Shown here: positions 6,493 through 40,886 of the stretch, piece by piece
How the letters are laid out: each line of letters opens with the position of its first letter
How positions within the stretch are numbered: position 1 is the stretch's first letter
Translations under genes and position numbers: made by a program
The notes under the pieces: model-generated
The model's input: only the letters and a program-made list of their open reading frames with translations
What the model was told of the DNA's origin: nothing
Database searches by the model: none
Assembly (NCBI GenBank): GCA_964454965.1
Contig: CAYVXY010000002.1
Coordinates: 49,426-113,425 of the forward strand
Direction: 5' to 3'
Length of the DNA stretch: 64,000 nt
Source of the DNA: an uncultured Polyangiaceae bacterium
Lineage (GTDB): Bacteria; Myxococcota_A; Polyangia; Polyangiales; Polyangiaceae

Positions 6493-9400
6493 TTACGTCC
6501 ACTCGCCCGTCCGTTGCACCAGTTCGAGCAGGGCTTCGTTCTGGATCACGGACTGCATTGCTCGCACCGTAGGTGCTGGCGGCACCGAGGGAGGCATCGA
6601 CTTGGGCGGCTCGTGCAACACGGTGTCGATGGGCCGCAGTCGTTGTGCAACAACGGAAGTGACCTGCGGGAAGGAAACCGCCAAGCCCGTGGCGAGCACG
6701 CTCGAACCAAGCGCAATCCCCCAACCAATGGGCGACAACGGCTGGCAGCCAAAGAATTGGCTCACGCCTGGTGTTTGGACGATGGCGGCCAACAGCGCCG
6801 AGGAAAGCACGCTCGTGGTGATGACGGGTCGACTGTAACCCCCCGCAGTGATCGTCTGTCCAAGTTGCGTCCCGACCAAGGCAAGCAGGCCGACCGTACT
6901 CGCCCGTTCGAAGCTGCCAAGGACACGCGCCACGGTCCAAGCCATGCCCGCGCCACTGGCTGTGATGATGGCGCGCGCTGCAATGTCACGGTTCAATGGT
7001 TTGCCGAGCGACGCATCAGGCCCCTCATTCGCGAGCTGCTCAAGCTGTTCCACCGAGGGAGGCCGCAACGCGATGGCCATGGCCGGAGCCACGTCCGTGA
7101 GCAGATTCACCAGCAGTAGCTGCCGCGGATTCAACGGTGGCCGACCATCGACCAGGCCGGCGGCCAAGGTGAAGCCGATTTCGCCCAGGTTGCCACCAAC
7201 CAGAATCGATACTGCGTCACGGACACTTGCCCACATGGCGCGGCCTTCGATAATGGCCTCGACAACCGTCTCGATCCGCTCATCCGTCAAGACGATATCC
7301 GCTGCGCTGCGGGCGGCCCCAGTGCTCGTTTCGCCAACGGCAATCCCGACGTTGGCCAAGCGGATTGCCGGAGCGTCGTTGGCGCCGTCACCGACCATTG
7401 CTACGACTCGCCCCTTGCGCTGCAGGGCGCGTACGATGCGTGCCTTCTGTGAAGGGGTGACACGCGCGAAGATCTGAACATCGTCGAGGCAACGATCGAG
7501 CTCATCGTCCGTCATGCTCAGCAGCTGGGCCCCAGACAACTGCACGCGACGGTCGACGAATCTTAGTTCATCGGCAATCGCGGCCGCCGTGCGCGGGTGG
7601 TCGCCGGTGATCATGAGCGGACGCACGCCGGTGCGGCGCAGCCGCCGCAGCGCCTTGCTCGCGGTAGGCCGAACTGGATCGCGGAACGCCACCATACCCA
7701 ACAGGGTCAACCCGGAAAGATCGCGTAGCTGTTCGGGATCTGCCGACGGGACCTGCCTATCGGCGACTCCCAGCAACCGGTAGCCGCGCCGTGCGAGTTG
7801 GTCGGTAACTTGCTCGACGTCTCGGCGCGTGACGTCGTCGAGAGCAACACGTTGTCCATCGACGACAGCTTGGGTACAAGCCGCAAGAATGACCTCGGGC
7901 GCACCCTTGACGTCAAGCCAATCCGCTCCCTCCGCGCGACCAAGGACAGCATGGTAGGCACGCCCTGGTTCGAAAGGCAGTTCCGCGCCACGTTCCCAAT
8001 GGCTGCGACCTAGCGTCAACGACACAGAAAGCGACTCCGCAGAACGCAACAAGGCAGCGTCCGTTGGGTCATCGTGCGCCATCGCGTAGCGGGCATCTGG
8101 CGCCGCGCGCAGAGCTGCCGCCACCACCAGCCGCTCCATTTCGAGCAACTCATCACGTCCGACGAAACGCCGGCCCTGAGTGACACCCACGAACTCGAGC
8201 CGCCCCTCGGTAAGAGTCCCAGTCTTATCAAGACAAAGTACATCGACACGGCCGAGTGCTTCGATCGATCGAGTACTCCGCACGAGAGCACCGCGTGCCA
8301 TCAGGCGACGTGCCGCCGCGAGTTGTGCGGCGGTGGCCAAGAGCGGAAGACCCTCGGGAACACTTGCCACCGCGAGACTCACCCCGGCTGGCACCAGATG
8401 CTCGACGCGCCGCCCGCGCAACATGCCGGCCAGAACCAGACCGACGCCAGCTCCCAGGGCCACCGGAGCCGTCAAGTTGACCAACGAACGCAGACGTTGT
8501 TCGACGCCGCTGGCATGCGGAACGCGGCGCAACGCCACCATGCCGCGCTTGGCTTCGGTTTGATCCCCAACAGCAACGACGATGCCCGTAACGCGCCCCG
8601 CGGCGATGCTCGTACCGGAATACAGCATACTGCTGCGATCGGCCGCCGAACCCTCGTAGCTCGGGTCCGAAGAGCGGACCACCGGTAGTGATTCACCGGT
8701 CAGACTCGCGGTGTCCACCTCGAGTGATTCGGCGTGCAGGATTCGGCAATCCGCGGGAACCACTTCACCACTCGACAAGACGACGATATCTCCCGTCACC
8801 AGATCGTCGACATCGACGTCGACAATGTGCCCGTCGCGGTGGACCGTAACCGTGCGTCGAGCGACTTGCGTCAAATCACGAATACGTCGCTCGGTGCGGA
8901 ACTTCTGGTAGCCGCCGAATATGGCATTGACCACGACGACGCCACCCACCATCACCGCATCACCCATCGAACCGGCCACGGCGGACAGGCCTGCGCCCAC
9001 AGCCAGCAGCGGAGCCAAGGGGTTGAACAGTTCATCCGAAACGTCTTCGACGAACTCGACGAAAGCCGGCTTGACGCTGCTCTTCACCGGCCTGCGGCGA
9101 TGCACTTCGATTTCGGCAAGCCCTACCTCGGAGGTAGAAAGTCGCCGCATGACTCCACGCGCATCGAGCGCATGCCACGGGGTGCGATCGCGGAGCGGCA
9201 CGACAGGTTGACGCGCCAAGGCTCGCGACGCACGCACGCCATTGAGCATCGAGATGAGCGTCGCCGCATTGACGACGGTAATGACACGTCGACTCGTCAG
9301 CGGTAGCAGGCCACCTGCCGAAACGAGGGCTCCCATCGTGGCAGCGGCCAACGCGATATTGACACTCTGCTTGGCGATCTGGCGCGCCACCACGGTAGCC

Positions 9401-11161: not shown

Positions 11162-12199
11162 GTGGTACTTCGCCGCGGAGCTCGTTTTGCACTTGCTACG
11201 GGACTGGCTTTGAGCTTGTGCTTAGCGATCACGGTACCTGCTCGCATCTCGTCGGCGACCAACGGCACAGGTGGTCTGAGCACTGGGGGCACTGGTACCT
11301 CACTCAACGCTGCAGGTGGATCAATCTTGCGGGGGTCATCTACCAGCAGTTCCGCCGGTCGCGCCTCCGCGGGCACCACCGCGATAGGCGGCACAACGCA
11401 GTCGACCGCGCAAACGCGTGCCGGCACCGGCGGCACTGCCGGCAGCCGAACCGCGACGAGTGTCGCCCCCCCTTCTGGGCTCGATGCAGGGGCAACTCGA
11501 CCAACCTGGCGTGAAGCCGAAGTCGTGCTGACGGTGGATCCTAGCTACATCGCCATGCCCTACGCCAGGCAGGCGCTCGAAGCAGCCCTGCTGGCTTGGA
11601 CTAGCAAGGCCGATCAACTGCCCAAGGTGACGCTACGCTACGCCGAAGATATGATGGGCAGCCAGAGCGCCGAGGAGAACCTGGCCGATCATCGCATCTT
11701 CTTTGCGCCATTAGGTGACAGACGTGCCAAGGGGGCACTTGCCATCACGCTAGTGACCGCAGACGAAAATAGCTCGTCCATCATGGACGCCGATATTCTG
11801 GTCAACGGCGGTCATCTGTTTACCGACGTGACCGCATCGCCCCAGGGACAGACTTTGGCTGTAGCCTACGACCTACAGGACGTCATTACCCACGAGCTCG
11901 GACATTGGTTCGGTCTGGACGAAGAATCCGCAAATGGCGAGTCAACGATGTACGCTTACGTCTACCCTGGCGAGACCAAGAAACGCGACCTTGACCAGAG
12001 TGACATTGCCGCAGTCCAGCTCGCCTACTGGCAAGCCGATAATCCGAGCGAGAATCGTGGTTGCAGCCTGAGGCGAACGCCTTCCAACGGCGTCCCCTGG
12101 GGCCTCGGTTGTCTGGCCGCCGCAGTTTGTCTGGTCCGACGAGGAAATCGACGCGGCAGAACTCATGTTTTGGTCCGCGTCAGCCGTCTTCAACCCTGA
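11162..12199 (+). CDS. Secreted metzincin-like zinc metalloprotease
   Basis: Signal peptide MVLRRGARFALATGLALSLCLAITVPA, then a Gly/Ser/Thr/Ala linker. The zinc motif is HELGHWFGLDE and a Met-turn-like ESTMYAY follows. The C-terminal tail is Cys + hydrophobic + Arg-rich. Confidence 0.8.
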   Translation: MVLRRGARFALATGLALSLCLAITVPARISSATNGTGGLSTGGTGTSLNAAGGSILRGSSTSSSAGRASAGTTAIGGTTQSTAQTRAGTGGTAGSRTATSVAPPSGLDAGATRPTWREAEVVLTVDPSYIAMPYARQALEAALLAWTSKADQLPKVTLRYAEDMMGSQSAEENLADHRIFFAPLGDRRAKGALAITLVTADENSSSIMDADILVNGGHLFTDVTASPQGQTLAVAYDLQDVITHELGHWFGLDEESANGESTMYAYVYPGETKKRDLDQSDIAAVQLAYWQADNPSENRGCSLRRTPSNGVPWGLGCLAAAVCLVRRGNRRGRTHVLVRVSRLQP

Positions 12200-12253
12200 G
12201 TATTCGACGTCGAGTAAAGCTCGCGCATTCCGTTAGGTCGACGGGGACTCGTT

Positions 12254-12748
12254 TTGGCGAAAGTGAAGGATGAACCGATGATGCAGGCGAAATTGGCAAA
12301 TCAAGCCGACGCAAAACGCGTGGAACGCGCCGAGGCCGAGTTCAGCAAAGTGCAGGATCCGCCTGCCAGCGTGGGCAGTCGCTCGCCCGCCAGCATCAGT
12401 AGTCAACGACGCATTGCGCCGCGTTACAAGGTCGAGCTAGACGTTAGCCTGGGCAGCGACCACAATTTCTACGTCGGGTTCGTCGAAAACATGTCTCAAG
12501 GCGGCGTGTTCATAGCGACGCACATGCTCAAGGCGGTGGGCGAGGTCTTCGAACTCACTGTGCACCTTCCCAACAGCGATGCTGTTGTCCAAGGTGTGGG
12601 TGAGGTGCGCTGGATCCGTGAGTATTCCGAGCGCAGCAACGTGCCCCCTGGCATGGGGATCCGTTTCATTTCCCTGCAGCCAGGATGTAGAGAAGCGATC
12701 GAGTCGTTCCTCGCCGATCGCGCACCGCTGTTCTTCGACGACGAATGA
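12254..12748 (+). CDS. PilZ-domain protein (myxobacterial TIGR02266-type)
   Basis: RRIAPRYKVELDVSL..FYVGFVENMSQGGVFIAT..VFELTVHLP..GVGEVRWIRE..PPGMGIRFISL. This is the PilZ RxxxR ... (D/N)xSxxG pattern. The ORF starts at TTG 12254; the first ATG is at 12278. Confidence 0.8.
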   Translation: MAKVKDEPMMQAKLANQADAKRVERAEAEFSKVQDPPASVGSRSPASISSQRRIAPRYKVELDVSLGSDHNFYVGFVENMSQGGVFIATHMLKAVGEVFELTVHLPNSDAVVQGVGEVRWIREYSERSNVPPGMGIRFISLQPGCREAIESFLADRAPLFFDDE

Positions 12749-23469: not shown

Positions 23470-24354
23470 CTACGCGGCTTGTTCGGTCGCAATTCGGCCG
23501 AAACGGCTATTGCCTGACAATTCAACGACACGCTGGGTAAGCTTGCGTTTGGCACGCGTTTCGAGTTGTCGAGCACGCTCCCGAGATACCCCCAGGAAGC
23601 GACCGAGTTCGGCAAGTGACTGGCACTCTTCCTCGTCAGCCATCAGGCGGTGTTCGACGATATGGCGTTCACGTCGATCGAGTATGTCGAGCGCAGCATG
23701 AACCAGTTGATTTGCCCGCCGACTGCGCTGAGAACGCGCGTAGGCCTCTTCTTGACTGACGTCGACCGAAACAAGAGTGTCCATGAGCGTCATTGTGCCG
23801 TCATCGAAGACTCTGGAACTGAGTGAAACGTCTCGGGTTTCCAGACGCGTTATCATCTCCGCCATTTGAACTGGCGAGGCGCCGAATCTTTCAGCGAGCA
23901 CTTCCATGGCCCGGTCACCCTCGCCCAAGAGGTTGGTGACGCGTACCCTCTCGCGACGCAGCTTGAAGAAGGTTCTCGTGCGAAGCACGCCTGACCCAGC
24001 GCCGACCAGACTCCACGAACCAACAATGTAGTTCAGAATGAACGCGCGGACCCAATAGGCAGCGTAGGTCACGAATCGGTTGCCACGTTCAGGTTCGAAC
24101 TTCGCTAGCGCGTGCATGATCCCGAGGTTGCCTTCGGCCACCAGGTCCGCAATCGGCAAGCCGTAGCGTCGATATTTCCATGCGATCGCAATGACATAGC
24201 GCAAGTTGGCCCGAATCAATGCCTCACTCGCTCGGTTGTCCAGATCCTCGTGCCGCCGCCGCCAGAGTTCCGTCTCTTCTTCGCGAGTAAGCTTCGGATG
24301 CTTTTGAACCGCTGCCGTGTAGCGGGACAGAGCTGAGTCCAGTTCAGTCTTCAT
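23470..24354 (-). CDS. Sigma-70 family sigma factor, RpoH-like (copy 1)
   Basis: ATG at 24354 (AGGAAAG SD): MKTELDSALSRYTAAV..LIRANLRYVIAIAWKYRRYG..DLVAEGNLGIMHALAKFEPERGNRFVTYAAYWVRAFI..RTFFKLRRE (RpoH-box-like)..SLAELGRFLGVSRERARQLETRA. Confidence 0.9.
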   Translation of the reverse strand: MKTELDSALSRYTAAVQKHPKLTREEETELWRRRHEDLDNRASEALIRANLRYVIAIAWKYRRYGLPIADLVAEGNLGIMHALAKFEPERGNRFVTYAAYWVRAFILNYIVGSWSLVGAGSGVLRTRTFFKLRRERVRVTNLLGEGDRAMEVLAERFGASPVQMAEMITRLETRDVSLSSRVFDDGTMTLMDTLVSVDVSQEEAYARSQRSRRANQLVHAALDILDRRERHIVEHRLMADEEECQSLAELGRFLGVSRERARQLETRAKRKLTQRVVELSGNSRFGRIATEQAA

Positions 24355-31046: not shown

Positions 31047-31321
31047 CGAGCTCGCAGGCTACCGGCCGGTATCGGCCCAAGTCAACGTCGGCCCTGACGT
31101 TGATGCCGGCCAATGCGGCAAAACGGCAGTCCTAACTGCCCGCGAAACCTATTGGCCACGCCCCCCGTAGAGGGAGATAGAATGATTGTCGAAGCAGTTT
31201 CCGGCCGCGGCTCCAACGATTTCGGTGTTGGGCAAGGGGCGGAGCAGACTTCATTGTCCCAAGGCCCATCGAAACTCGATTGCCAGGCATACCCTTCTGG
31301 CGCGTACGAAGGCACGTAAAA

Positions 31322-32206
31322 ATGACCGTCTATTCGGACACTGCGGTATCTCGCTACATGTCGCGTGCAAATCAGTTTCCAAAGCTCTCGCGCGAAAAGG
31401 AGCTAGAACTCTTCGACCATTGGCAGAGCCGAGGCGATTTGACTGCCAAGGAAGAATTGGTCAGCGCCAATTTGCGCTACGTCATAACGATTGCCTTGAA
31501 GTATCGCCACTATGGGCTGCCGCTAGCCGACCTGATTTCGGAAGGTAACGTCGGAATCGTTCATGCCCTGGGCAAATTCGATCCCGAGCGCAAATTCCGC
31601 TTCGTCACCTATTCAGCGTACTGGATCCGAGCGTTCATTCTGGATTATGTGATTCGGTCTTGGAGTCTCGTGGGTGCTGGGTCAGGTGCCTTGCGGTCCA
31701 AGATGTTTTTCAAGCTGCGCCGCGAAAGAGTTCGAGTCACCAATCTCGTTGGCGATGGTGAGCGAGCCAACGAGCTCCTGGCAGAACGGCTCAACCTGTC
31801 GCGCGACCAAGTTGTCGAGATGGTCGGTAGGGTGACGGTAAGAGATGTCTCCTTGGACACCAAGGTATTCGACGACAGTGGAACTGCACTGGTAGACACC
31901 TTGGTTTCGCCCAGCACGAATCAAGAAGAGGCCTATTCGAGTTCGCAGGGCCAGCAACACATGCGTGACGTCGTGAATGCCGCGCTAAACGTTTTGGATC
32001 GACGCGAACGATTCATCGTAGAGCAACGAGCCATGGCTGACTCGGACCAAGAGAAGTCATTGGCCGAACTTGGCCGACATCTGGGAGTGTCGCGGGAACG
32101 CGCTCGCCAGTTGGAGGTGCGCGCCATGCGCAAATTGAGGTCGAGCATCGCTGAGATGGCCGGTGGCGACAGCGTGGCTAGTCTGGCGTTCGGCCGCGCC
32201 GCTTGA
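31322..32206 (+). CDS. Sigma-70 family sigma factor, RpoH-like (copy 2, paralogue of 23470-24354)
   Basis: MTVYSDTAVSRYMSRA..LVSANLRYVITIALKYRHYG..DLISEGNVGIVHALGKFDPERKFRFVTYSAYWIRAFI..KMFFKLRRE..SLAELGRHLGVSRERARQLEVRA. It is collinear with copy 1 over its whole length. Confidence 0.9.
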   Translation: MTVYSDTAVSRYMSRANQFPKLSREKELELFDHWQSRGDLTAKEELVSANLRYVITIALKYRHYGLPLADLISEGNVGIVHALGKFDPERKFRFVTYSAYWIRAFILDYVIRSWSLVGAGSGALRSKMFFKLRRERVRVTNLVGDGERANELLAERLNLSRDQVVEMVGRVTVRDVSLDTKVFDDSGTALVDTLVSPSTNQEEAYSSSQGQQHMRDVVNAALNVLDRRERFIVEQRAMADSDQEKSLAELGRHLGVSRERARQLEVRAMRKLRSSIAEMAGGDSVASLAFGRAA

Positions 32207-32399: not shown

Positions 32400-34784
32400 A
32401 TGCCCAAGGGGAACACCTGGAGATTTGCGCGAGGATTCAGTGCTCTAGGACTCGCTTTAGTGTTGCTATTGCCCGGTCTGGCAGAATCCGCCGAAGCGCC
32501 GTCCGGTGATCCACATTGGTTCCGCTTGGGCAATGTAGTGGGCGCGGTATGGGAAGAGGGCAAAGGTCAGCTGCATATCGTAGGCGATCGTGACGCCAAA
32601 GCGGCGGGGTTTTCGGCTCAGGATCTCGCGGTGGCGCTCGAGTGGGGTAGTGGCCGCGCCGACAACCCAGGCTACGTGTCGATTGATCCAAAGCCTGCGG
32701 ATCCGAAGGGCCCCTTCATGGATGTCGTCGTCAACGATGAAGCGCTCAATACATCGTTTGGCTGGACGATGTTCGAGGCAGACCGCGTGATGAAGTCCAT
32801 GGCTCTTGGCGCGGACAGCCTCACGCGCGCTATGGTTGACATCCCGGTGCCGGGTTTCAAAACCATAACCAAGATCAGCGATTCCCGTTCGGACGCCTCA
32901 ACGGACATTTGGTCACGGTTCTGGTTTCGTCCGGGACCGCACCAGGAGCAAGCCGACCGGCACGCCTTCAGAATCTCGAATGCAACCGTCAGGATTGACA
33001 CTGAAGTTCTGCTGCGAAAGGGCAACGCGCTGGTAAGCTCTGGTGGCAAGCGGGATCCCGTTGCCGATGAGTTTGCGAATTTCTTCAACTCAAACTATGA
33101 CAAACTAGCCCGCGAAGAGCCCGTTTTGCAGCGTTTGCAGCAGTTGTTCAGGCTACTGCTCGTAGCTGAGTGGGTTCGCTCGCAACGATTCCCCATAGAT
33201 TCTGCCTATCTGCGTCATGCAGCGGAACCCCAATTCCCCATGCCGATGGAAACACCATCGATAGGCGTGGAGTCGATATCGACGCATGGAGCTGCTGTTC
33301 GTCATGCGCAGGTGTTTGGTGGCGTTAGTTTTGCGGGACTGGAATTGGCAGTAGCGCGCGCCAATCTCGAGCGATTCGCGACCGACGCACTCGATGCTGC
33401 CCGCAAACCACATTCAGTGGCCACCGCCCAAACTGGCGCCGGGGTTGCAGTGGCCTCCATCCCTCCGGATGCCACCCGCAGGCCGCGCTATACGAAGCAC
33501 CTCCTCGCCAAAATCCCACTACTTGAAGGAAGATTCCTCGAACTTTGGGGGCGTCCACCGGTGGGCGGCGAACTGTCAGAATACGATGCGGAAGATACCG
33601 TCTTGGCTCAGCCGGAACTATTTGGGGTCAATCCGAATCCAGTCACCTTCGAGCGTGGTGTATTGGGGCCATCTGGAAGTTCTCGTCGGACTGAGAAGCG
33701 CGGAGTGCAAGGGCAGGAGCCATTCCCTTTGCGTGCTTACCAATTGTTCGATGTAGAAGGCCAACTGTGCGGAAACTTCACCAAGCATCGTCTTGACCAG
33801 CAGATGGCACGTTTCGTGGTCGAACCACTGGACGCATCTGATCCCTGGGTACTGCTCCCTGACGGAGAATCGCTGGTTTGGGCTCAGCAAAGTCCCGAAC
33901 ACTTGTTGCATTTCGAACCGAGGAGTGGCCTCCTGCTTGCAGAGCAATTTGGGCGCCAGTTGGTCATATATCAGCGCAACCGACATCAGACGCTGGAACG
34001 CATTACTCTAGCGGACCAGAGCGGAAAGGAGCAGCCACTCTTCCAAGGTACGCTCGGCAACAATGGTCGGCGTCTCCTGTCGCTGCGTCCAGTATCCGGT
34101 GGTACATCTATCGAGCTGACCCATGCCAGCAAGAGGCTTTGGCCAGCCTCCGAACGAAAGCAGCAACTGAAGGTTCGATCCCCCTATCAGAAGCCAGGTG
34201 AGTGGCGCACGCTCTCGATTGACATGGACACTGGAACCTTGGAGGGAACTGGCACCGACGCACGGCTCGCGGAATACCTCGGCATTCAGGGTCATCGGAT
34301 TGCGCGAGCGCTACTGCAAGCGCGAGATACACCAACGGTTCTCGGCCTGGGTGCGCGCACCCTGGTTATCTCCGGAAAGACTCGTGAGCTCTGGTTGTTG
34401 GACACCTCGGTGGAGAATCGAACTCGATTGGTCAGTCTATTCCGACGCGCAACAGACACGGCACCCGAAGATGCACTCGAGGCCGAAGACGGTTTTACCG
34501 CGTTCATCTTCAAGTCAGCCAAAGAGTACCAAGTAGAATTGACGGCAGGTGACGGTCGACATGTATCCCTCTCCGGTGCAGAGGCGCAGGCATTTGTCCG
34601 AAGCCGTCGAAATGCGACCAGGCCCACGCCAGGGCCAGCGGATGACCTGATTCAACACGGGTTACCAGAGAAGCAGAACCGCGAGCAACGCGAGAAGCTG
34701 TATCAACTGATGCTCCCCAGAGCATCTTTCGACCCACTCGATAGCCGGGTTCACGCTGCCCGCCACGCACGGCTCGCAGGCTAA
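32400..34784 (+). CDS. Large (794 aa) secreted hypothetical protein
   Basis: Signal peptide MPKGNTWRFARGFSALGLALVLLLPGLAESAEA. It is a long, uninterrupted ORF with coding-like composition. No domain recognised by eye. Confidence 0.75.
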   Translation: MPKGNTWRFARGFSALGLALVLLLPGLAESAEAPSGDPHWFRLGNVVGAVWEEGKGQLHIVGDRDAKAAGFSAQDLAVALEWGSGRADNPGYVSIDPKPADPKGPFMDVVVNDEALNTSFGWTMFEADRVMKSMALGADSLTRAMVDIPVPGFKTITKISDSRSDASTDIWSRFWFRPGPHQEQADRHAFRISNATVRIDTEVLLRKGNALVSSGGKRDPVADEFANFFNSNYDKLAREEPVLQRLQQLFRLLLVAEWVRSQRFPIDSAYLRHAAEPQFPMPMETPSIGVESISTHGAAVRHAQVFGGVSFAGLELAVARANLERFATDALDAARKPHSVATAQTGAGVAVASIPPDATRRPRYTKHLLAKIPLLEGRFLELWGRPPVGGELSEYDAEDTVLAQPELFGVNPNPVTFERGVLGPSGSSRRTEKRGVQGQEPFPLRAYQLFDVEGQLCGNFTKHRLDQQMARFVVEPLDASDPWVLLPDGESLVWAQQSPEHLLHFEPRSGLLLAEQFGRQLVIYQRNRHQTLERITLADQSGKEQPLFQGTLGNNGRRLLSLRPVSGGTSIELTHASKRLWPASERKQQLKVRSPYQKPGEWRTLSIDMDTGTLEGTGTDARLAEYLGIQGHRIARALLQARDTPTVLGLGARTLVISGKTRELWLLDTSVENRTRLVSLFRRATDTAPEDALEAEDGFTAFIFKSAKEYQVELTAGDGRHVSLSGAEAQAFVRSRRNATRPTPGPADDLIQHGLPEKQNREQREKLYQLMLPRASFDPLDSRVHAARHARLAG

Positions 34785-34795
34785 GTCCAGGGCCA

Positions 34796-36379
34796 CTAAC
34801 CTTTGGCACAGTTGGGCGCAGACGCTTCGTGAAGCTCAAAATCCGCCACTTCGCGCTTGGTTGCGCCGAAAACCACATACACATCGGACCCAATACGCGT
34901 GACGTGATCGCCGTACTTGGAAGCTGCCTTCGAATACCCGTCGCTTCGATAATCAGCGAGTAGAGCAGTCAGGAGTTCAGCGGGGTCTGCGCCGCTAACA
35001 CGACTCATGGCGGTTTCCGCGCGTGCTCTGCCGTAGATCGTCCGGCTAACACCAGGCGCATCTTCGATTCGAAGGCCAAGGACCAGATCACTTCCATCGA
35101 CTTCAAGGGATGACAAGCGCTTTCCAAGCTCCGGCTGCAGCCCCGCACGAACTGCGTTCAAGTCAGTGCGATCACGATGTGCTCGGGCAAAAATGCCAGA
35201 GAGTTCCATGAGAGCAACGGCGGTCTCGCCCTCTGCATCCTGTAGAATGGGACCCGGTTTACGACACCCGTTCAACTGGCGTCCTAGGCTTGAGGATGAA
35301 CGAGCAGCCCATTTGCCTGTCATTTTGCTCTTGAATTGTTGGGTAGTGAGTTGGTGCTTTGACGAGTCGATGCTCGTGGGTTGGATTGCCAACCACCCAT
35401 AGTCCGCTTGCGCAAGAGTGCTCTGAACCCCATTCCCATGTGCCGAACCAACCAGCATGACGGCAAGTTGCTGCGGCGCGGCTCTGGAGATTGACAGCAT
35501 GTTCAGCGTCATCACACGGCTGCGTTGGTTCGTCACTTCGAAGAATTCCAGGACTCGCTCGAAGTCGTTCTCAATCTCCGGCTCGATGTAGACTTGACGC
35601 GAGCGAGCTCGCTCACGAATTCGATGCATCTGCTCTAGGACTTGCTCGGTGGATCTGTCTAGACGTTCCGTGGTCCGCCATTCCTGAGTGACCCAAGGAT
35701 CGGCCGCCAAAATGCGTTGCCAGGTGCGATCGCGGTCACCTACTTTGGCGAGTTGTGTGGCCTCCTCCCGACTGAGCGCTGCCGCGCCGATTCGGATTAG
35801 GTACTCGGCCTCTGGGTTACCGGTAACGGTCAATTCCTTGGCGTAGAGATCGGGCTGCTCCAGGCCATGTACCGGTGTGGGGCTTAGCACTGCGACATAT
35901 TCGGCTGCACTGATTTCCCCCTGAGCCAGTAGCGCTGTGAGCGAGTCAAAGGCAAGACTCTTGTCCTTCTCGAGTTCGAACAATCGACGCACGCGCGGCG
36001 TGTTCAACTGCGTGCCAGTCGCTGCACCCTCCACGCCAACGACAATGCTGGCCTGTTGGTGCAACCGGAGCAGCATGATGGCGATTTCGATCTGGCTCAG
36101 GATTGAGGAATGATTCTCCTGAATCACGATCACGAAACCTCGGGATCCTCGTGTCGGATTTGCATTCAACGTACCAACACCGTTGGCACACCGTCGTGCG
36201 AGTTGAACCAGCTTCTCGGGGGCGCCACTCATCCCAGCACTTGATTGCGTGGCACGTGCAGGCGTCTGACGAGTGCCACCACAGCCAAGCACGAACGCAA
36301 ACAGCAGCATGGTCGTGAGCCAAGCTTGGGTCTTGAGTGCACTCCGCGCTACTAGCCTATGGGTAGATGGGTGAGACAC
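34796..36379 (-). CDS. Lipoprotein, possibly ChaN/erythromycin-esterase/TraB/Tiki-superfamily-like
   Basis: 527 aa. Lipobox LLFAFVLGCGG. The blocks are GFVIVIQENHSS..(about 30 aa)..IVVGVEGAATG and AVMLVGSAHGNG (the E.H / G..H two-block pattern). The start overlaps the upstream TIR gene by 28 nt. Confidence 0.65.
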   Translation of the reverse strand: MSHPSTHRLVARSALKTQAWLTTMLLFAFVLGCGGTRQTPARATQSSAGMSGAPEKLVQLARRCANGVGTLNANPTRGSRGFVIVIQENHSSILSQIEIAIMLLRLHQQASIVVGVEGAATGTQLNTPRVRRLFELEKDKSLAFDSLTALLAQGEISAAEYVAVLSPTPVHGLEQPDLYAKELTVTGNPEAEYLIRIGAAALSREEATQLAKVGDRDRTWQRILAADPWVTQEWRTTERLDRSTEQVLEQMHRIRERARSRQVYIEPEIENDFERVLEFFEVTNQRSRVMTLNMLSISRAAPQQLAVMLVGSAHGNGVQSTLAQADYGWLAIQPTSIDSSKHQLTTQQFKSKMTGKWAARSSSSLGRQLNGCRKPGPILQDAEGETAVALMELSGIFARAHRDRTDLNAVRAGLQPELGKRLSSLEVDGSDLVLGLRIEDAPGVSRTIYGRARAETAMSRVSGADPAELLTALLADYRSDGYSKAASKYGDHVTRIGSDVYVVFGATKREVADFELHEASAPNCAKG

Positions 36380-37059
36380 TGTTCAATTACCGTGCTAAGG
36401 GTTGAGGTTTCAACGGGCAACCAATGCAGAAGTAGCTCTCTGGCGCGGGGATCACGCGTTGCGCTGATGGCGCGCACGATGCCAAGCCGCGCCAGTTCAT
36501 CGAGCTCAGTCGTGTACACCTTTTTGACGTATGAAAATTGCTCGGCAAGCGCGACTTTGTCGGCGACATCTTCGAGGACTTGTGCAGCAACGCGGACAAC
36601 GTCGCGCTCAGGCGCGGCTTCGATCAGCCGGAGCGCACCCCAGACTTCTGCGCGCTTTCGCATCTCGCTGGCGAGGCGCATGAGGTCTTGCTGGGCGCTT
36701 GCCAGGCCATTGGAAGCTCGAACACACAAGCGGTCTGTCATGCTGGCCGGCAGCTGCACATCATCGAGTACCAATACGAAACGCGGTGCCCACCGTCGGC
36801 CGGCAATGGCCCATTCCTCTTGGCACCAAGAGGACGCAACGCTCTCTCGCGTCGCCACGAATAGGAGGCATTCGAATGCAACGTTTCGCAAGCGCGATGC
36901 CAATGCCACGCCTGGCTCAAACGGGTCGACACACAGGGTGATGTCCACAGCTGCAAATGTCGTTGTCACCAACTGACCGATGGGCATTTGACGCCAGGTG
37001 CAGTCCCCCGAGCGAGCACCTTTGACGCACTTGTGCGAAACGAAACACGTGTAGGGCAC
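36352..37059 (-). CDS. TIR-domain protein with C-terminal HEAT-like repeats
   Basis: GTG 37059 with a GAGGGA SD 7 nt upstream. The TIR-like blocks are YTCFVSH, VDPFEPG and LLFVATRESVASSWCQEEW (the S.WC..E motif). The C-terminal HEAT-like stretch includes RLGIVRAISATRDPRARELLLHWL. Confidence 0.7.
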   Translation of the reverse strand: MPYTCFVSHKCVKGARSGDCTWRQMPIGQLVTTTFAAVDITLCVDPFEPGVALASRLRNVAFECLLFVATRESVASSWCQEEWAIAGRRWAPRFVLVLDDVQLPASMTDRLCVRASNGLASAQQDLMRLASEMRKRAEVWGALRLIEAAPERDVVRVAAQVLEDVADKVALAEQFSYVKKVYTTELDELARLGIVRAISATRDPRARELLLHWLPVETSTLSTVIEQCLTHLPIG

Positions 37060-37217
37060 AGCCGAATTCCCTCACTACCGCGCCGGAGGATAATCGCGTA
37101 ATGGGCTCGATATCAACACATCTTCGGTCGGACACGGCCGCCAGTCCGATGACGGTTGATCAAACACGGTGACTTGAATGCTCGCAGCCCTTGGCGCCGC
37201 GACTATCAATTAAGGTG

Positions 37218-39038: not shown

Positions 39039-39342
39039 CAAAAACCGGATCCTTGAGATTGGGTAGTGCCATCGTGTCCATGCTCTGGCTTAGCGTGCTT
39101 AACGGAGGCGGCTTGCCATCGCGTCCATGGGACTTGTGCGGCGCGCACAGTGGGTAAGGGGCGGAAATCGTTGGTACTGGACCTGAGTCTGTTCAACGCG
39201 ATGGCCGCTCGGTAACCCATTTCGCGAAACCACGCCGCATGCGCCGACAGGCTGCTCAACTTGGTCGGCATCGACCGGGCGGTCGAGAACAAGGCTTGGC
39301 TTGGGTAAGACTCATCGACCGACACGCTCGCTCACCGGCATG

Positions 39343-39420
39343 GGGCGGAGAGAGCGCTTCCATTGGGCGGAGAGAGCGCTTCCATTGGGCGGAGAGAGCG
39401 CTTCCATTGGGCGGAGTGAG
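39343..39420. repeat. 22-bp tandem repeat, 3 perfect copies plus a degenerate partial copy
   Basis: GGGCGGAGAGAGCGCTTCCATT at 39343-39364, 39365-39386 and 39387-39408, then GGGCGGAGTGAGTGG. Confidence 0.95.
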
Positions 39421-39445: not shown

Positions 39446-39535
39446 GGCGTGGTGACAGCCCTGCGCGCTGGTGGCGGCGTGGTTACAGCTCTGCGCGCTG
39501 GTGGCGGCGTGGTTACAGCCCTGCGCGCTGGTGAC
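39446..39535. repeat. 30-bp tandem repeat, 3 near-identical copies
   Basis: GGCGTGGT(G/T)ACAGC(C/T)CTGCGCGCTGGTG(G/A)C at 39446-39475, 39476-39505 and 39506-39535. Confidence 0.95.
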
Positions 39536-39986
39536 GGAGGATGCGGCGCGGAGGAATTGGTGCGGTAAAGTCGCGGGGAGTCACGATGGACGGTCGCGGG
39601 TAGAGCGCGCGTTTCCGCGATGACCAGAACCAAATCGCCACTGGTGAGCTTGCCACTCCCAGCCTACTGAATGCATGGTCGCGCTGCCCATGAACTATTC
39701 GGCGATCCCGAAGAGTTGGCGCTGGCTCCCTCTGCCGATACGAAACAGGGTGGCGGCCGCGAATAGCTGGCGTTCGCAACGGACAACCTTGCGCCGCGGT
39801 GTTGCAAGCGCCCATCGAAGCGTCGCAAGGCACGTGGACCGCAATGGGGAGCCATTGGCACGGGTTCCAAGCTGGCCGAACGACGCCTGCCAGCCTAACC
39901 GGGTGCCTGCTTCCCAAGGATTACGGCGGGACCTGTGCAATGCGACCGCGCGTCGTTCGTCACCAGCCGTGGTAGACTCGACGTTC

Positions 39987-40886
39987 ATGTCGACCGAGTA
40001 CGCAATCGAGACCTCCAAACCGTCGTTGTCACAATGCGAGTGCTGTGGCGGTCTCACCACTCGACTTACTCGGTTTGTGTACCGCGGGGGCGACGCATTC
40101 GCTGTCTACTACGCAATCTACTCGAACAGCCACCGCGAAAATGAAGTTGACATGTTAGTTTCGCTCGGCGAATGGGGCGAAGGTAGTGACCCGTCGCAAC
40201 GTGCCGCCTTCTATTGCCGAGTCCGCCCAAGCGAAAACTCCTACGACGTCAAGCTTGTCGACGCGGCGGAGTCACCTTGGAGCACAGTTGCTATCATGGG
40301 CCAAGAGCTTTCGCGCGCGGAAGCCCTCAGTCATCCGTGGAAGCAGACGGCGTTCGAAATACTCGACGAAGCGTTTCTACGTGACTGCTCCCTCCGCGGC
40401 TTCCTTCATCGCGTGGCGTGCGGAGATCCCGCTGTTCCACTGGAGCATAGCTTTGGCATGCCGGATGACGTCTTCGCCCTTGGTGACGAACGAAGTGAAC
40501 GGGCTGAGGTGCGTCGCAACTTCGCTTCACTCGATGGAAAGCGGTTCTTCGTTCGCTGTTTGCTACCCGTCCCCGTGGAAGATTATGGGACTTGGTCCAT
40601 TGGACTCTGGGTCGAGGTTTCGAAGGACAACTATGACCGAGTCTGGAGCGCCTGGGACACGCCAGAAGACTGGGTGCGCCTCCAATTTTCTGGATCCGTC
40701 GCTAACGATGGGGCGGAACTTGGCCTTCCCATCATATCTGGAACTACCGTACACGTGCACGCGCCAGACCCGAGCACGCCACTACATGTCGAGTCAGTGT
40801 CGAGCAGCGAACTGAGCACGTTTCTCTCCAAGACGTGGACCAAGGCGTCTTTCGAGAGTTACGCAGTCATTCGTGGTTTCTTGTGA
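39987..40886 (+). CDS. Hypothetical protein with a DUF2199-like C-terminal half
   Basis: ATG 39987 (MSTEYAIETSKPSLSQCECCGG...). The C-terminal half has DGKRFFVRCLLPVPVEDYGTWSIGLWVEVSKDNYDRVWSAWD...LQFSGSVAND, which resembles the DUF2199 pattern as I remember it. The upstream part of ORF 39675-40886 is probably not coding. Confidence 0.6.
   Translation: MSTEYAIETSKPSLSQCECCGGLTTRLTRFVYRGGDAFAVYYAIYSNSHRENEVDMLVSLGEWGEGSDPSQRAAFYCRVRPSENSYDVKLVDAAESPWSTVAIMGQELSRAEALSHPWKQTAFEILDEAFLRDCSLRGFLHRVACGDPAVPLEHSFGMPDDVFALGDERSERAEVRRNFASLDGKRFFVRCLLPVPVEDYGTWSIGLWVEVSKDNYDRVWSAWDTPEDWVRLQFSGSVANDGAELGLPIISGTTVHVHAPDPSTPLHVESVSSSELSTFLSKTWTKASFESYAVIRGFL

Follow-up and report, generated by a model that had tools for sequence, protein, structure and literature searches.

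The window, a stretch of 64,000 nucleotides (nt) from an uncultured Polyangiaceae bacterium (contig CAYVXY010000002.1, positions 49,426 to 113,425), carries on its reverse strand two overlapping genes, the first encoding a TIR domain joined to HEAT repeats and the second an exported protein of the TIKI/erythromycin-esterase (Ere) superfamily. The two genes span ~2.3 kb and belong to a widespread two-gene module with near-universal adjacency, which is examined here as a candidate conflict or immune system. The features of the pair, with residues counted in amino acids (aa), are as follows.

36352-37059, reverse strand: TIR-HEAT gene, 235 aa, GTG start, TAG stop at 36352-36354 (open reading frame (ORF), Pfam, hhalign and family profile)
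36685-37059, reverse strand: TIR domain, ~aa 1-125 (aligned columns and the Pfam stretch aa 48-125; boundaries approximate)
36814-36816, reverse strand: codon of Glu82, the predicted catalytic (NADase) glutamate, invariant in a 23-sequence alignment
36355-36684, reverse strand: helical linker and two HEAT repeats of the alphaRep/PBS-lyase type, ~aa 126-235 (HEAT_2 at aa 146-215, NblB-like match, profile matches)
37068-37073, reverse strand: GAGGGA, resembling a Shine-Dalgarno sequence, 8 nt upstream of the GTG at 37059 (read from the sequence)
36352-36379, reverse strand: 28 nt shared by both genes, where the TIR-HEAT gene ends and the TIKI-like gene begins (ORF coordinates)
34796-36379, reverse strand: exported TIKI/erythromycin-esterase-superfamily gene of the lipoprotein type, 527 aa, GTG start (ORF, AlphaFold2 (AF2) model, Foldseek, active-site conservation)
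36281-36379, reverse strand: signal peptide with lipobox, aa 1-33 (MSHPSTHRLVARSALKTQAWLTTMLLFAFVLG/C), Cys33 codon at 36281-36283 (read from the sequence)
35375-36223, reverse strand: TIKI-like catalytic domain, ~aa 53-335, with a helical insert of ~170 aa (aa ~125-300) (conservation and AF2 secondary structure)
34835-35242, reverse strand: C-terminal α/β domain, ~aa 380-515 (AF2 secondary structure and predicted local distance difference test (pLDDT))

The overlapping genes and their products

A first-pass annotation, made from the letters alone, had reported the coordinates, GTG starts, 28-nt overlap and GAGGGA sequence of the pair together with the motifs YTCFVSH, VDPFEPG, SSWCQEEW, VIQENHSS, VGVEGA and MLVGSAHGNG, all of which are present as described. 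The start of the 527-aa gene is ambiguous, as a public gene call uses an internal ATG that yields 504 aa and no overlap. Only in the long form do the hydrophobic core and the LGC lipobox follow a positively charged n-region. In L001, the closest relative, a long start lies at the same aligned position (caATGcc, compared with caGTGtc in the window), a difference that is silent in the reading frame of the TIR gene, and there too the genes overlap by 28 nt. Most other loci have either an overlap or a short gap between the two genes. The 28-nt overlap suggests translational coupling of the TIR-HEAT and TIKI-like genes.

As judged from sequence profiles, the 235-aa protein is a divergent TIR domain followed by two HEAT repeats. 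Its TIR motifs comprise CFVSH at βA, the BB-loop-like VDPFEPG, and SSWCQEEW at αC. When the three-member window clade was aligned with 26 TIR-HEAT partner proteins from other loci, many of which are clear TIR_2 and HEAT_2 proteins, hhalign returned a full-length match at 99.6% (E 8e-24, 214 columns); the same three-sequence clade gave no match to the single TIR protein of an Azoarcus genome, and a match appeared only with the 26-sequence alignment. The joint family profile matches solved TIR structures (Cat1, 1.6e-22; PdTIR, 4e-21; the AbTIR NADase, 7e-21), as well as the TIR domains of TLR1, 2, 6, 10, and 15, Roq1, and TIR-STING. Its last ~60 positions (172-234) match alphaRep/PBS-type HEAT structures down to E 8e-48, and the window protein also has an NblB-like match in NCBIfam (E 3.8e-4). 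Both the TIR domain and the HEAT/PBS-lyase tail proposed in the first-pass annotation are borne out by these matches, the tail consisting of two repeats of the alphaRep/PBS type.

Glu82, the second glutamate of WCQEEW, is kept in the window, L001, and L002 and falls at the Glu position of the S.W..El family consensus, in agreement with the catalytic-type Glu noted earlier. The TIR domain thus keeps the αC Glu on which NAD+-cleaving TIRs depend, and NADase activity is predicted. No signal peptide, transmembrane (TM) helix or hydrophobic segment is visible in the sequence of the 235-aa protein, which is read as cytoplasmic and so on the other side of the membrane from its exported partner, and the Pfam scan gave no NTPase domain. 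The PADLOC model for ThsB reached an insignificant E-value of 0.028.

In the 527-aa protein, the lipobox pattern reads MSHPSTHRLVARSALKTQ-AWLTTMLLFAFVLG-C33-GGT, a pattern-level match rather than the call of a dedicated predictor, and L001 and L002 have a Cys at the equivalent position. The hydrophobic core of the three close relatives ends in this Cys and is followed by a small/polar linker. An exhaustive HMMER search places the protein in a family of 1,336 representatives at 50% identity (E<=1e-3), of which 143 reach E<=1e-30, mostly of 500-560 aa. Nearly all family N-termini have a signal peptide, lipobox or membrane anchor. With a relaxed pattern applied to 196 members, a lipobox-like Cys was found in 73 and a hydrophobic N-terminus without it in 97, and ~72% of the N-terminal hydrophobic cores have the length of a signal peptide.

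The TIKI superfamily is defined by a set of two His and two Glu residues with an additional basic residue (PMC6254334). The corresponding positions of the exported family are E88 (121/121 sequences), H90 (121/121), E117 (121/122), R286 (108/122), and H314 (122/122). The spacing from His to Glu is 27, compared with 28 in RRSP and Bcr135, and that from Arg to His is 28, compared with 29 in RRSP; the reference residues are E3900, H3902, E3930, R4001, and H4030 in RRSP and H85/E113 in Bcr135 (PMC6254334). An AF2 model built with an 88-sequence alignment has a pLDDT of 87.8 and a predicted template modelling score (pTM) of 0.86. A Foldseek search of this model against the PDB placed three Ere-family structures at the top, namely EreC 6xcq (prob 0.95, E 3.8e-3), EreC 6xcs, and 2qgm, and a model from an earlier, shallow alignment had retrieved EreC, HopBA1, and RRSP. 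Foldseek gave no significant structural match for the C-terminal α/β domain and nothing significant against viral structures. Pfam matches among the members are most often to PF04187 (ChaN/Tiki), hit weakly by 13 of 88 (best E 7.7e-5). The site, the Ere matches, and these ChaN matches together support the placement in the ChaN/Ere/Tiki superfamily that the first-pass annotation had proposed. Since the conserved 2His/2Glu+Arg site is a stronger argument for the superfamily than the fold match, the 527-aa protein is read as a catalytically competent TIKI/Ere-type hydrolase, a prediction drawn from conservation and the model.

Outside the catalytic site, near-invariant residues include GEIS.AE in the helical insert (aa 154-160), K352, and an RKPPP linker (K374, P375, P377). 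Long family members are multidomain (P0035, P0047, and others): one consists of a signal peptide, TPR, the TIKI-like domain, and a CdiA_C toxin domain, another of TPR, the TIKI-like domain, and DUF6883, and others carry C-terminal Tcp10_C-like repeats or LysM.

Pairing across loci and the convergent third gene

Single-sequence searches of a 5.8-billion-protein set recovered two or three relatives for each protein, an 88-sequence profile gave the same three, and the relatives of both proteins sit on the same two contigs (L001 and L002). A more distant family member, 24% identical to the window protein (hhalign 99.1%), was found in an Azoarcus metagenome-assembled genome (L004, JAISPJ010000027.1), where a gene with TIR_2 (5e-15) and HEAT_2 lies 12 nt upstream. 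The genes bordering the Azoarcus module, at 8475-8870 and 11744-12365, encode a PIN-domain protein and a Gp49/HTH_37 (HigB/HigA-like) toxin-antitoxin pair. A metagenome scan with a three-sequence alignment found no loci, and one with a 14-sequence alignment gave 48 more, ranging from 34 to 71% GC.

All ORFs within 5 kb were clustered for 47 loci. The sole recurrent neighbour was the HEAT-partner cluster (41/47 loci), always directly upstream on the same strand and, in nearly all loci, overlapping the TIKI-like gene or within ~160 nt of it; two further HEAT partners were recovered by hidden Markov model. Measured in one direction, from loci of the exported family to the upstream HEAT partner, a gene joining an effector domain to HEAT repeats is directly upstream in ~42 of the 45 loci with informative upstream sequence. 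Pfam matches among the 41 upstream proteins were to TIR_2 in 27 (best 3e-29), HEAT_2 in 21, HEAT_PBS in 6, and SEFIR in 3. The co-conservation of the pair and its overlap, which the first-pass annotation had named as a check, is confirmed and reaches far wider than expected.

This pairing bears on the suggestion that the exported protein is a ChaN-like haem- or iron-uptake lipoprotein whose TIR-HEAT neighbour is unrelated or loosely related. ChaN-type proteins carry a lipoprotein signal, which that of the window protein resembles, and PF04187 (ChaN, haem-binding uptake) is the only recurrent Pfam family among the members. Essentially all members, however, have the full hydrolase site, no TonB-dependent receptor or transporter recurs nearby, and adjacency to a HEAT gene across such a range of GC content is too strong for an unrelated neighbour, which makes the haem-uptake reading very improbable.

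In the window, L001, and L002, the TIR-HEAT and TIKI-like genes are followed by a convergent gene of ~800 aa:

32400-34784, forward strand: convergent gene for a 794-aa secreted protein, conserved beside the pair, with an N-terminal domain at aa 33-362 (nt 32496-33485)

The flanking sigma-70, SGNH hydrolase, and DUF2199 genes of the window are not common to L001. As the pair and the convergent gene are kept while the flanks differ, the three genes constitute a cassette; SGNH, sigma-70, and DUF2199 had been considered as parts of the system and were rejected on the same grounds. The first-pass reading of the locus as a gene pair holds, but the conserved third gene had been missed. The 794-aa protein lies beside the pair in L001 (60% identity) and L002, and its N-terminal domain recurs in RHS-repeat proteins whose genes immediately precede the module in L034 (30% identity, E 1e-38 to aa 758-1088) and L045 (E 4e-20 to aa 623-874); these proteins end in repeats with no recognisable toxin tip. 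The protein has no Pfam, NCBIfam, or PADLOC assignment, and a PDB-sequence profile search gave nothing. An extracytoplasmic accessory role in the module is plausible for it. Motifs of the shared domain are PG..IDP.P..P.GP.MDV, GW.MFEADR.MK, and IWSRFW, and in the RHS proteins (L034:2-5182, L045:2078-6004) the domain is embedded between YD/RHS arrays.

Interchangeable heads, a fusion form and the function of the module

The upstream partners keep the C-terminal motif DPTERYW.Y.ALG.IGG and vary in their N-terminal domain, such that the HEAT module is the constant, adaptor-like part of the partner family. Besides the TIR domain found in most partners, the following variants were observed.

L016: CHAT head
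L018 and L051: trypsin-like heads
L048: NACHT-containing partner
L043: SEFIR/TIR head
L028 and L046: heads with no domain assignment

Conflict systems are marked by swappable death-type heads carried on a constant adaptor. As one of several interchangeable heads, the TIR domain looks like an effector rather than a sensor, unlike ThsB.

The wider neighbours are a mixed set, among them PIN and HigAB-like toxin-antitoxin genes, integrases, caspase, TPR-CHAT, SIR2/ThsA-like, and PD-T4-6-like genes; ThsA-like genes in the PADLOC sense account for 2 of 150 ORFs across 36 loci. In one locus (L052:7386-8378), a caspase-family gene (Peptidase_C14, E 3.5e-18) starts 18 nt after the TIKI-like gene, and in another (L038) a convergent TPR-CHAT protein adjoins the module.

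At one locus the two halves are joined. The single 731-aa protein encoded at L053:5779-7974 (JGI 3300055389, Ga0566199_00001805) begins with a SEFIR/TIR domain (aa 16-153; SEFIR 7.6e-15, TIR_2 5e-14) and continues through a serine/threonine-rich linker and a TM helix after RRK to a TIKI-like domain. This fusion shows that the two domains can function with one membrane between them, as in Toll-like receptors. It carries no HEAT tail, and comparison of the two forms suggests that the tail substitutes for the covalent TM link. An imuA-imuB-dnaE2-like cassette adjoins the fusion gene, and SRAP, TacA-like, and TrbC genes lie nearby.

From the domain identities, the near-universal adjacency, the swapping of heads together with the wide GC range and mixed neighbours of the loci, and the fusion, the reading to which we give an even chance is that the pair is a conflict module, probably immune or abortive, built on the logic of Toll-like receptors, with an enzyme or sensor on the envelope side tied to a cytoplasmic effector. 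In such a module, the exported TIKI-like protein would sense an envelope event or undergo modification by it, an event in which a phage, toxin or peptide could be involved, and the secreted 794-aa protein may act together with the TIKI-like protein. The signal would then reach the cytoplasmic effector, where TIR domains would assemble and either consume NAD+ or make a nucleotide signal, with growth arrest or cell death as the outcome. Three rivals were weighed and rank, in descending plausibility, as a non-immune envelope module, a secreted toxin with a HEAT chaperone or immunity factor, and the ChaN-like haem protein treated above.

Several observations weigh against the conflict reading or the assignments beneath it. 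When searched alone, the 235-aa window protein stays below threshold for both of its domains: TIR_2 (PF13676) matches aa 48-125 with 21.5 bits (E 3.5e-4) against a cutoff of 28, the L001 orthologue scoring 23.3 bits, and HEAT_2 matches with 16.5 bits (E 0.011) against a cutoff of 27.7. The 527-aa window protein has no match in Pfam, NCBIfam or PADLOC, and PDB-sequence profile searches with its family reached no solved Ere, ChaN or TIKI structure. The Foldseek E-values of the model are marginal, with none at or below 1e-3, and the TM-scores are low (0.17-0.23), which is attributed to the ~170-aa helical insert that splits the core. The fusion of L053 is the only one among ~196 members examined. 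In the window itself, the exported protein looks like a cleaved lipoprotein and the TIR-HEAT protein lacks a membrane segment, and the module neighbours of the 47 loci include no conserved component that would span the membrane; in this split form without a membrane link, the direct trans-membrane coupling of L053 is not simply transferable. The exported proteins have short N-terminal tails that lack conservation, and a proposal that the HEAT repeats bind a conserved cytoplasmic N-tail of the exported partner was rejected for this reason. Twin-arginine "hitchhiker" export of the TIR-HEAT protein was also considered and rejected, as the signal peptides have no consistent RR motif. Finally, neighbourhoods are mixed and also contain ordinary genes such as histidine kinases and solute-binding proteins, and a viral-contig scan and tblastn of phage and plasmid collections returned no relatives.

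These last two points favour a non-immune role in envelope signalling or maintenance, in which a peptide, pheromone or envelope component would be the substrate of the TIKI-like enzyme and the TIR-HEAT protein would serve as regulator or scaffold. TIKI proteins of the PrgY/TraB type control pheromone. That such proteins belong to the TIKI superfamily (PMC6254334) is a further argument for this reading, as is the large, chromosomal nature of the family. The exchange of TIR for CHAT, trypsin-like, SEFIR, and NACHT domains is nevertheless typical of effector heads and not of a dedicated regulator, the NADase-TIR catalytic Glu is invariant, and the context of the cassette differs even among close relatives. 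On balance, an envelope function outside immunity seems unlikely.

Alternatively, the TIKI-like protein could be a secreted toxin or exo-enzyme similar to RRSP, HopBA1, and PMT, with the HEAT protein as a cytoplasmic chaperone or immunity factor that binds it prior to export. Several solved TIKI-fold proteins are toxins or effectors (PMC6254334), one family member has CdiA_C at its C-terminus and another carries DUF6883, a domain of the 794-aa protein recurs in the RHS-repeat proteins beside the module in L034 and L045, and contact before export would solve the topology problem. However, an immunity or chaperone protein needs no TIR, CHAT or trypsin-like enzymatic head, the loci encode no secretion system dedicated to the protein, and the export signals of most members are plain Sec or lipoprotein ones. 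The fusion, moreover, holds its domains permanently across the membrane, unlike a chaperone and its cargo, and the RHS proteins of both loci have no recognisable toxin tip. A toxin with its chaperone is accordingly an improbable account of the pair.

The conflict reading can be drawn more specifically, and here only tentatively, as a bacterial counterpart of Toll-like receptors, in which a TIKI-fold domain outside the cytoplasm would perceive an invader or damage to the envelope and set off, through the membrane, a cytoplasmic death effector of the TIR, CHAT, trypsin-like or SEFIR type. The HEAT repeats would be the adaptor that stands in for the covalent TM link of the fusion, a secreted, RHS-associated helper would take part in some lineages, and the whole would amount to innate immune signalling from outside to inside in bacteria. 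The L053 fusion resembles Toll-like receptors and SEFIR proteins of the IL-17-receptor type in possessing an ectodomain, one TM helix, and a cytoplasmic TIR/SEFIR domain. It differs from Toll-like receptors in its inverted order, with the TIR domain N-terminal, and in having an ectodomain of the TIKI type rather than leucine-rich repeats (LRR) or FnIII. In the window the halves are separate proteins, and a single chain is found only in the fusion. A survey of E. coli TIR proteins indicates that membrane features like those of Toll-like receptors seem to be absent from known bacterial TIR systems (PMC11350192).

Known systems and genomic surroundings

TIR domains are a shared immune currency of animals, plants, and bacteria. 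To our knowledge, those bacterial TIR systems that have been described detect infection from within the cell. The module resembles Thoeris, the TIR effectors of CBASS/Pycsar, SPARTA, TIR-STING, TIR-NLR/Avs, and Cat1 in having a bacterial TIR domain with the αC Glu in a small, patchily distributed cassette. Unlike these anti-phage systems, it has no ThsA, cyclase, Argonaute, STING or STAND NTPase partner; its constant partner is an exported TIKI-like hydrolase, and its TIR domain carries a two-repeat HEAT tail. In the window, no Thoeris ThsA-type effector (SIR2 or TM/Macro with SLOG) was found among the cassette genes or the flanks scanned.

With the TIKI superfamily (Tiki, TraB/PrgY, EreA-D/Bcr135-136, ChaN, RRSP, HopBA1, and PMT C1-C2), the exported family shares an E-x-H...E...R...H active site with nearly the same spacing as RRSP and Bcr135, and its modelled α/β core with a parallel β-sheet has Ere structures as its best, if marginal, fold matches. 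ChaN, PrgY, and Tiki are extracytoplasmic, as is predicted for the exported protein. It is set apart by its lack of a Pfam model, by the ~170-aa insert with GEIS.AE, the RKPPP linker, and the extra C-terminal domain, and by its near-universal pairing with an effector-HEAT gene.

The modular NLR-like or STAND systems (Kaur et al., 2020; PMC7159879) likewise place swappable TIR, SEFIR, CHAT, and trypsin-like heads before repeats, and a NACHT domain occurs in one partner variant of the present family (L048). Most partners differ from those systems in having no NTPase switch, only two HEAT repeats, and an exported hydrolase as partner. No Tiki, TraB or erythromycin esterase component is mentioned in that work (Kaur et al., 2020; PMC7159879). 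A prior description of the pair was found neither in PADLOC-DB v2, Pfam or NCBIfam nor in the literature searched, in keeping with the first-pass view of the locus as undescribed.

Among TIR-effector conflict modules, a kind already known, this pair is unusual in coupling TIR and other death-type heads to an exported TIKI-fold enzyme that is predicted to be catalytically intact. If the pair is an immune module, bacteria would link envelope events to a cytoplasmic TIR response, a bacterial TIR protein would have receptor-like topology, with bearing on the origins of such receptors, and a role would be assigned to a large protein family of >1,300 clusters (50% identity) that has no name so far.

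The first-pass annotation had also judged codon usage at the locus to be less biased toward G or C at third codon positions (GC3) than in flanking genes and took this as a sign of an accessory locus. GC3 is indeed slightly lower in the lipoprotein gene (0.588), the TIR gene (0.638), and the 794-aa gene (0.594) than the window median of 0.658, but the argument for an accessory locus is weak; values in the window range from 0.48 to 0.74. Strong compositional evidence of recent transfer was likewise rejected given the small shift.

Two sigma-70 paralogues with 58% amino-acid identity are located in the window, at 31280-32206 on the forward strand and 23473-24354 on the reverse strand. The first is immediately upstream of the 794-aa gene, and its counterpart is not beside the cassette in L001. 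On the other side of the pair, an ORF-poor stretch upstream of the DUF2199 gene (39675-40886) contains two tandem arrays, one at 39339-39420 (22 nt x 3.7, 96% match) and the other at 39446-39537 (30 nt x 3.1, 93% match).

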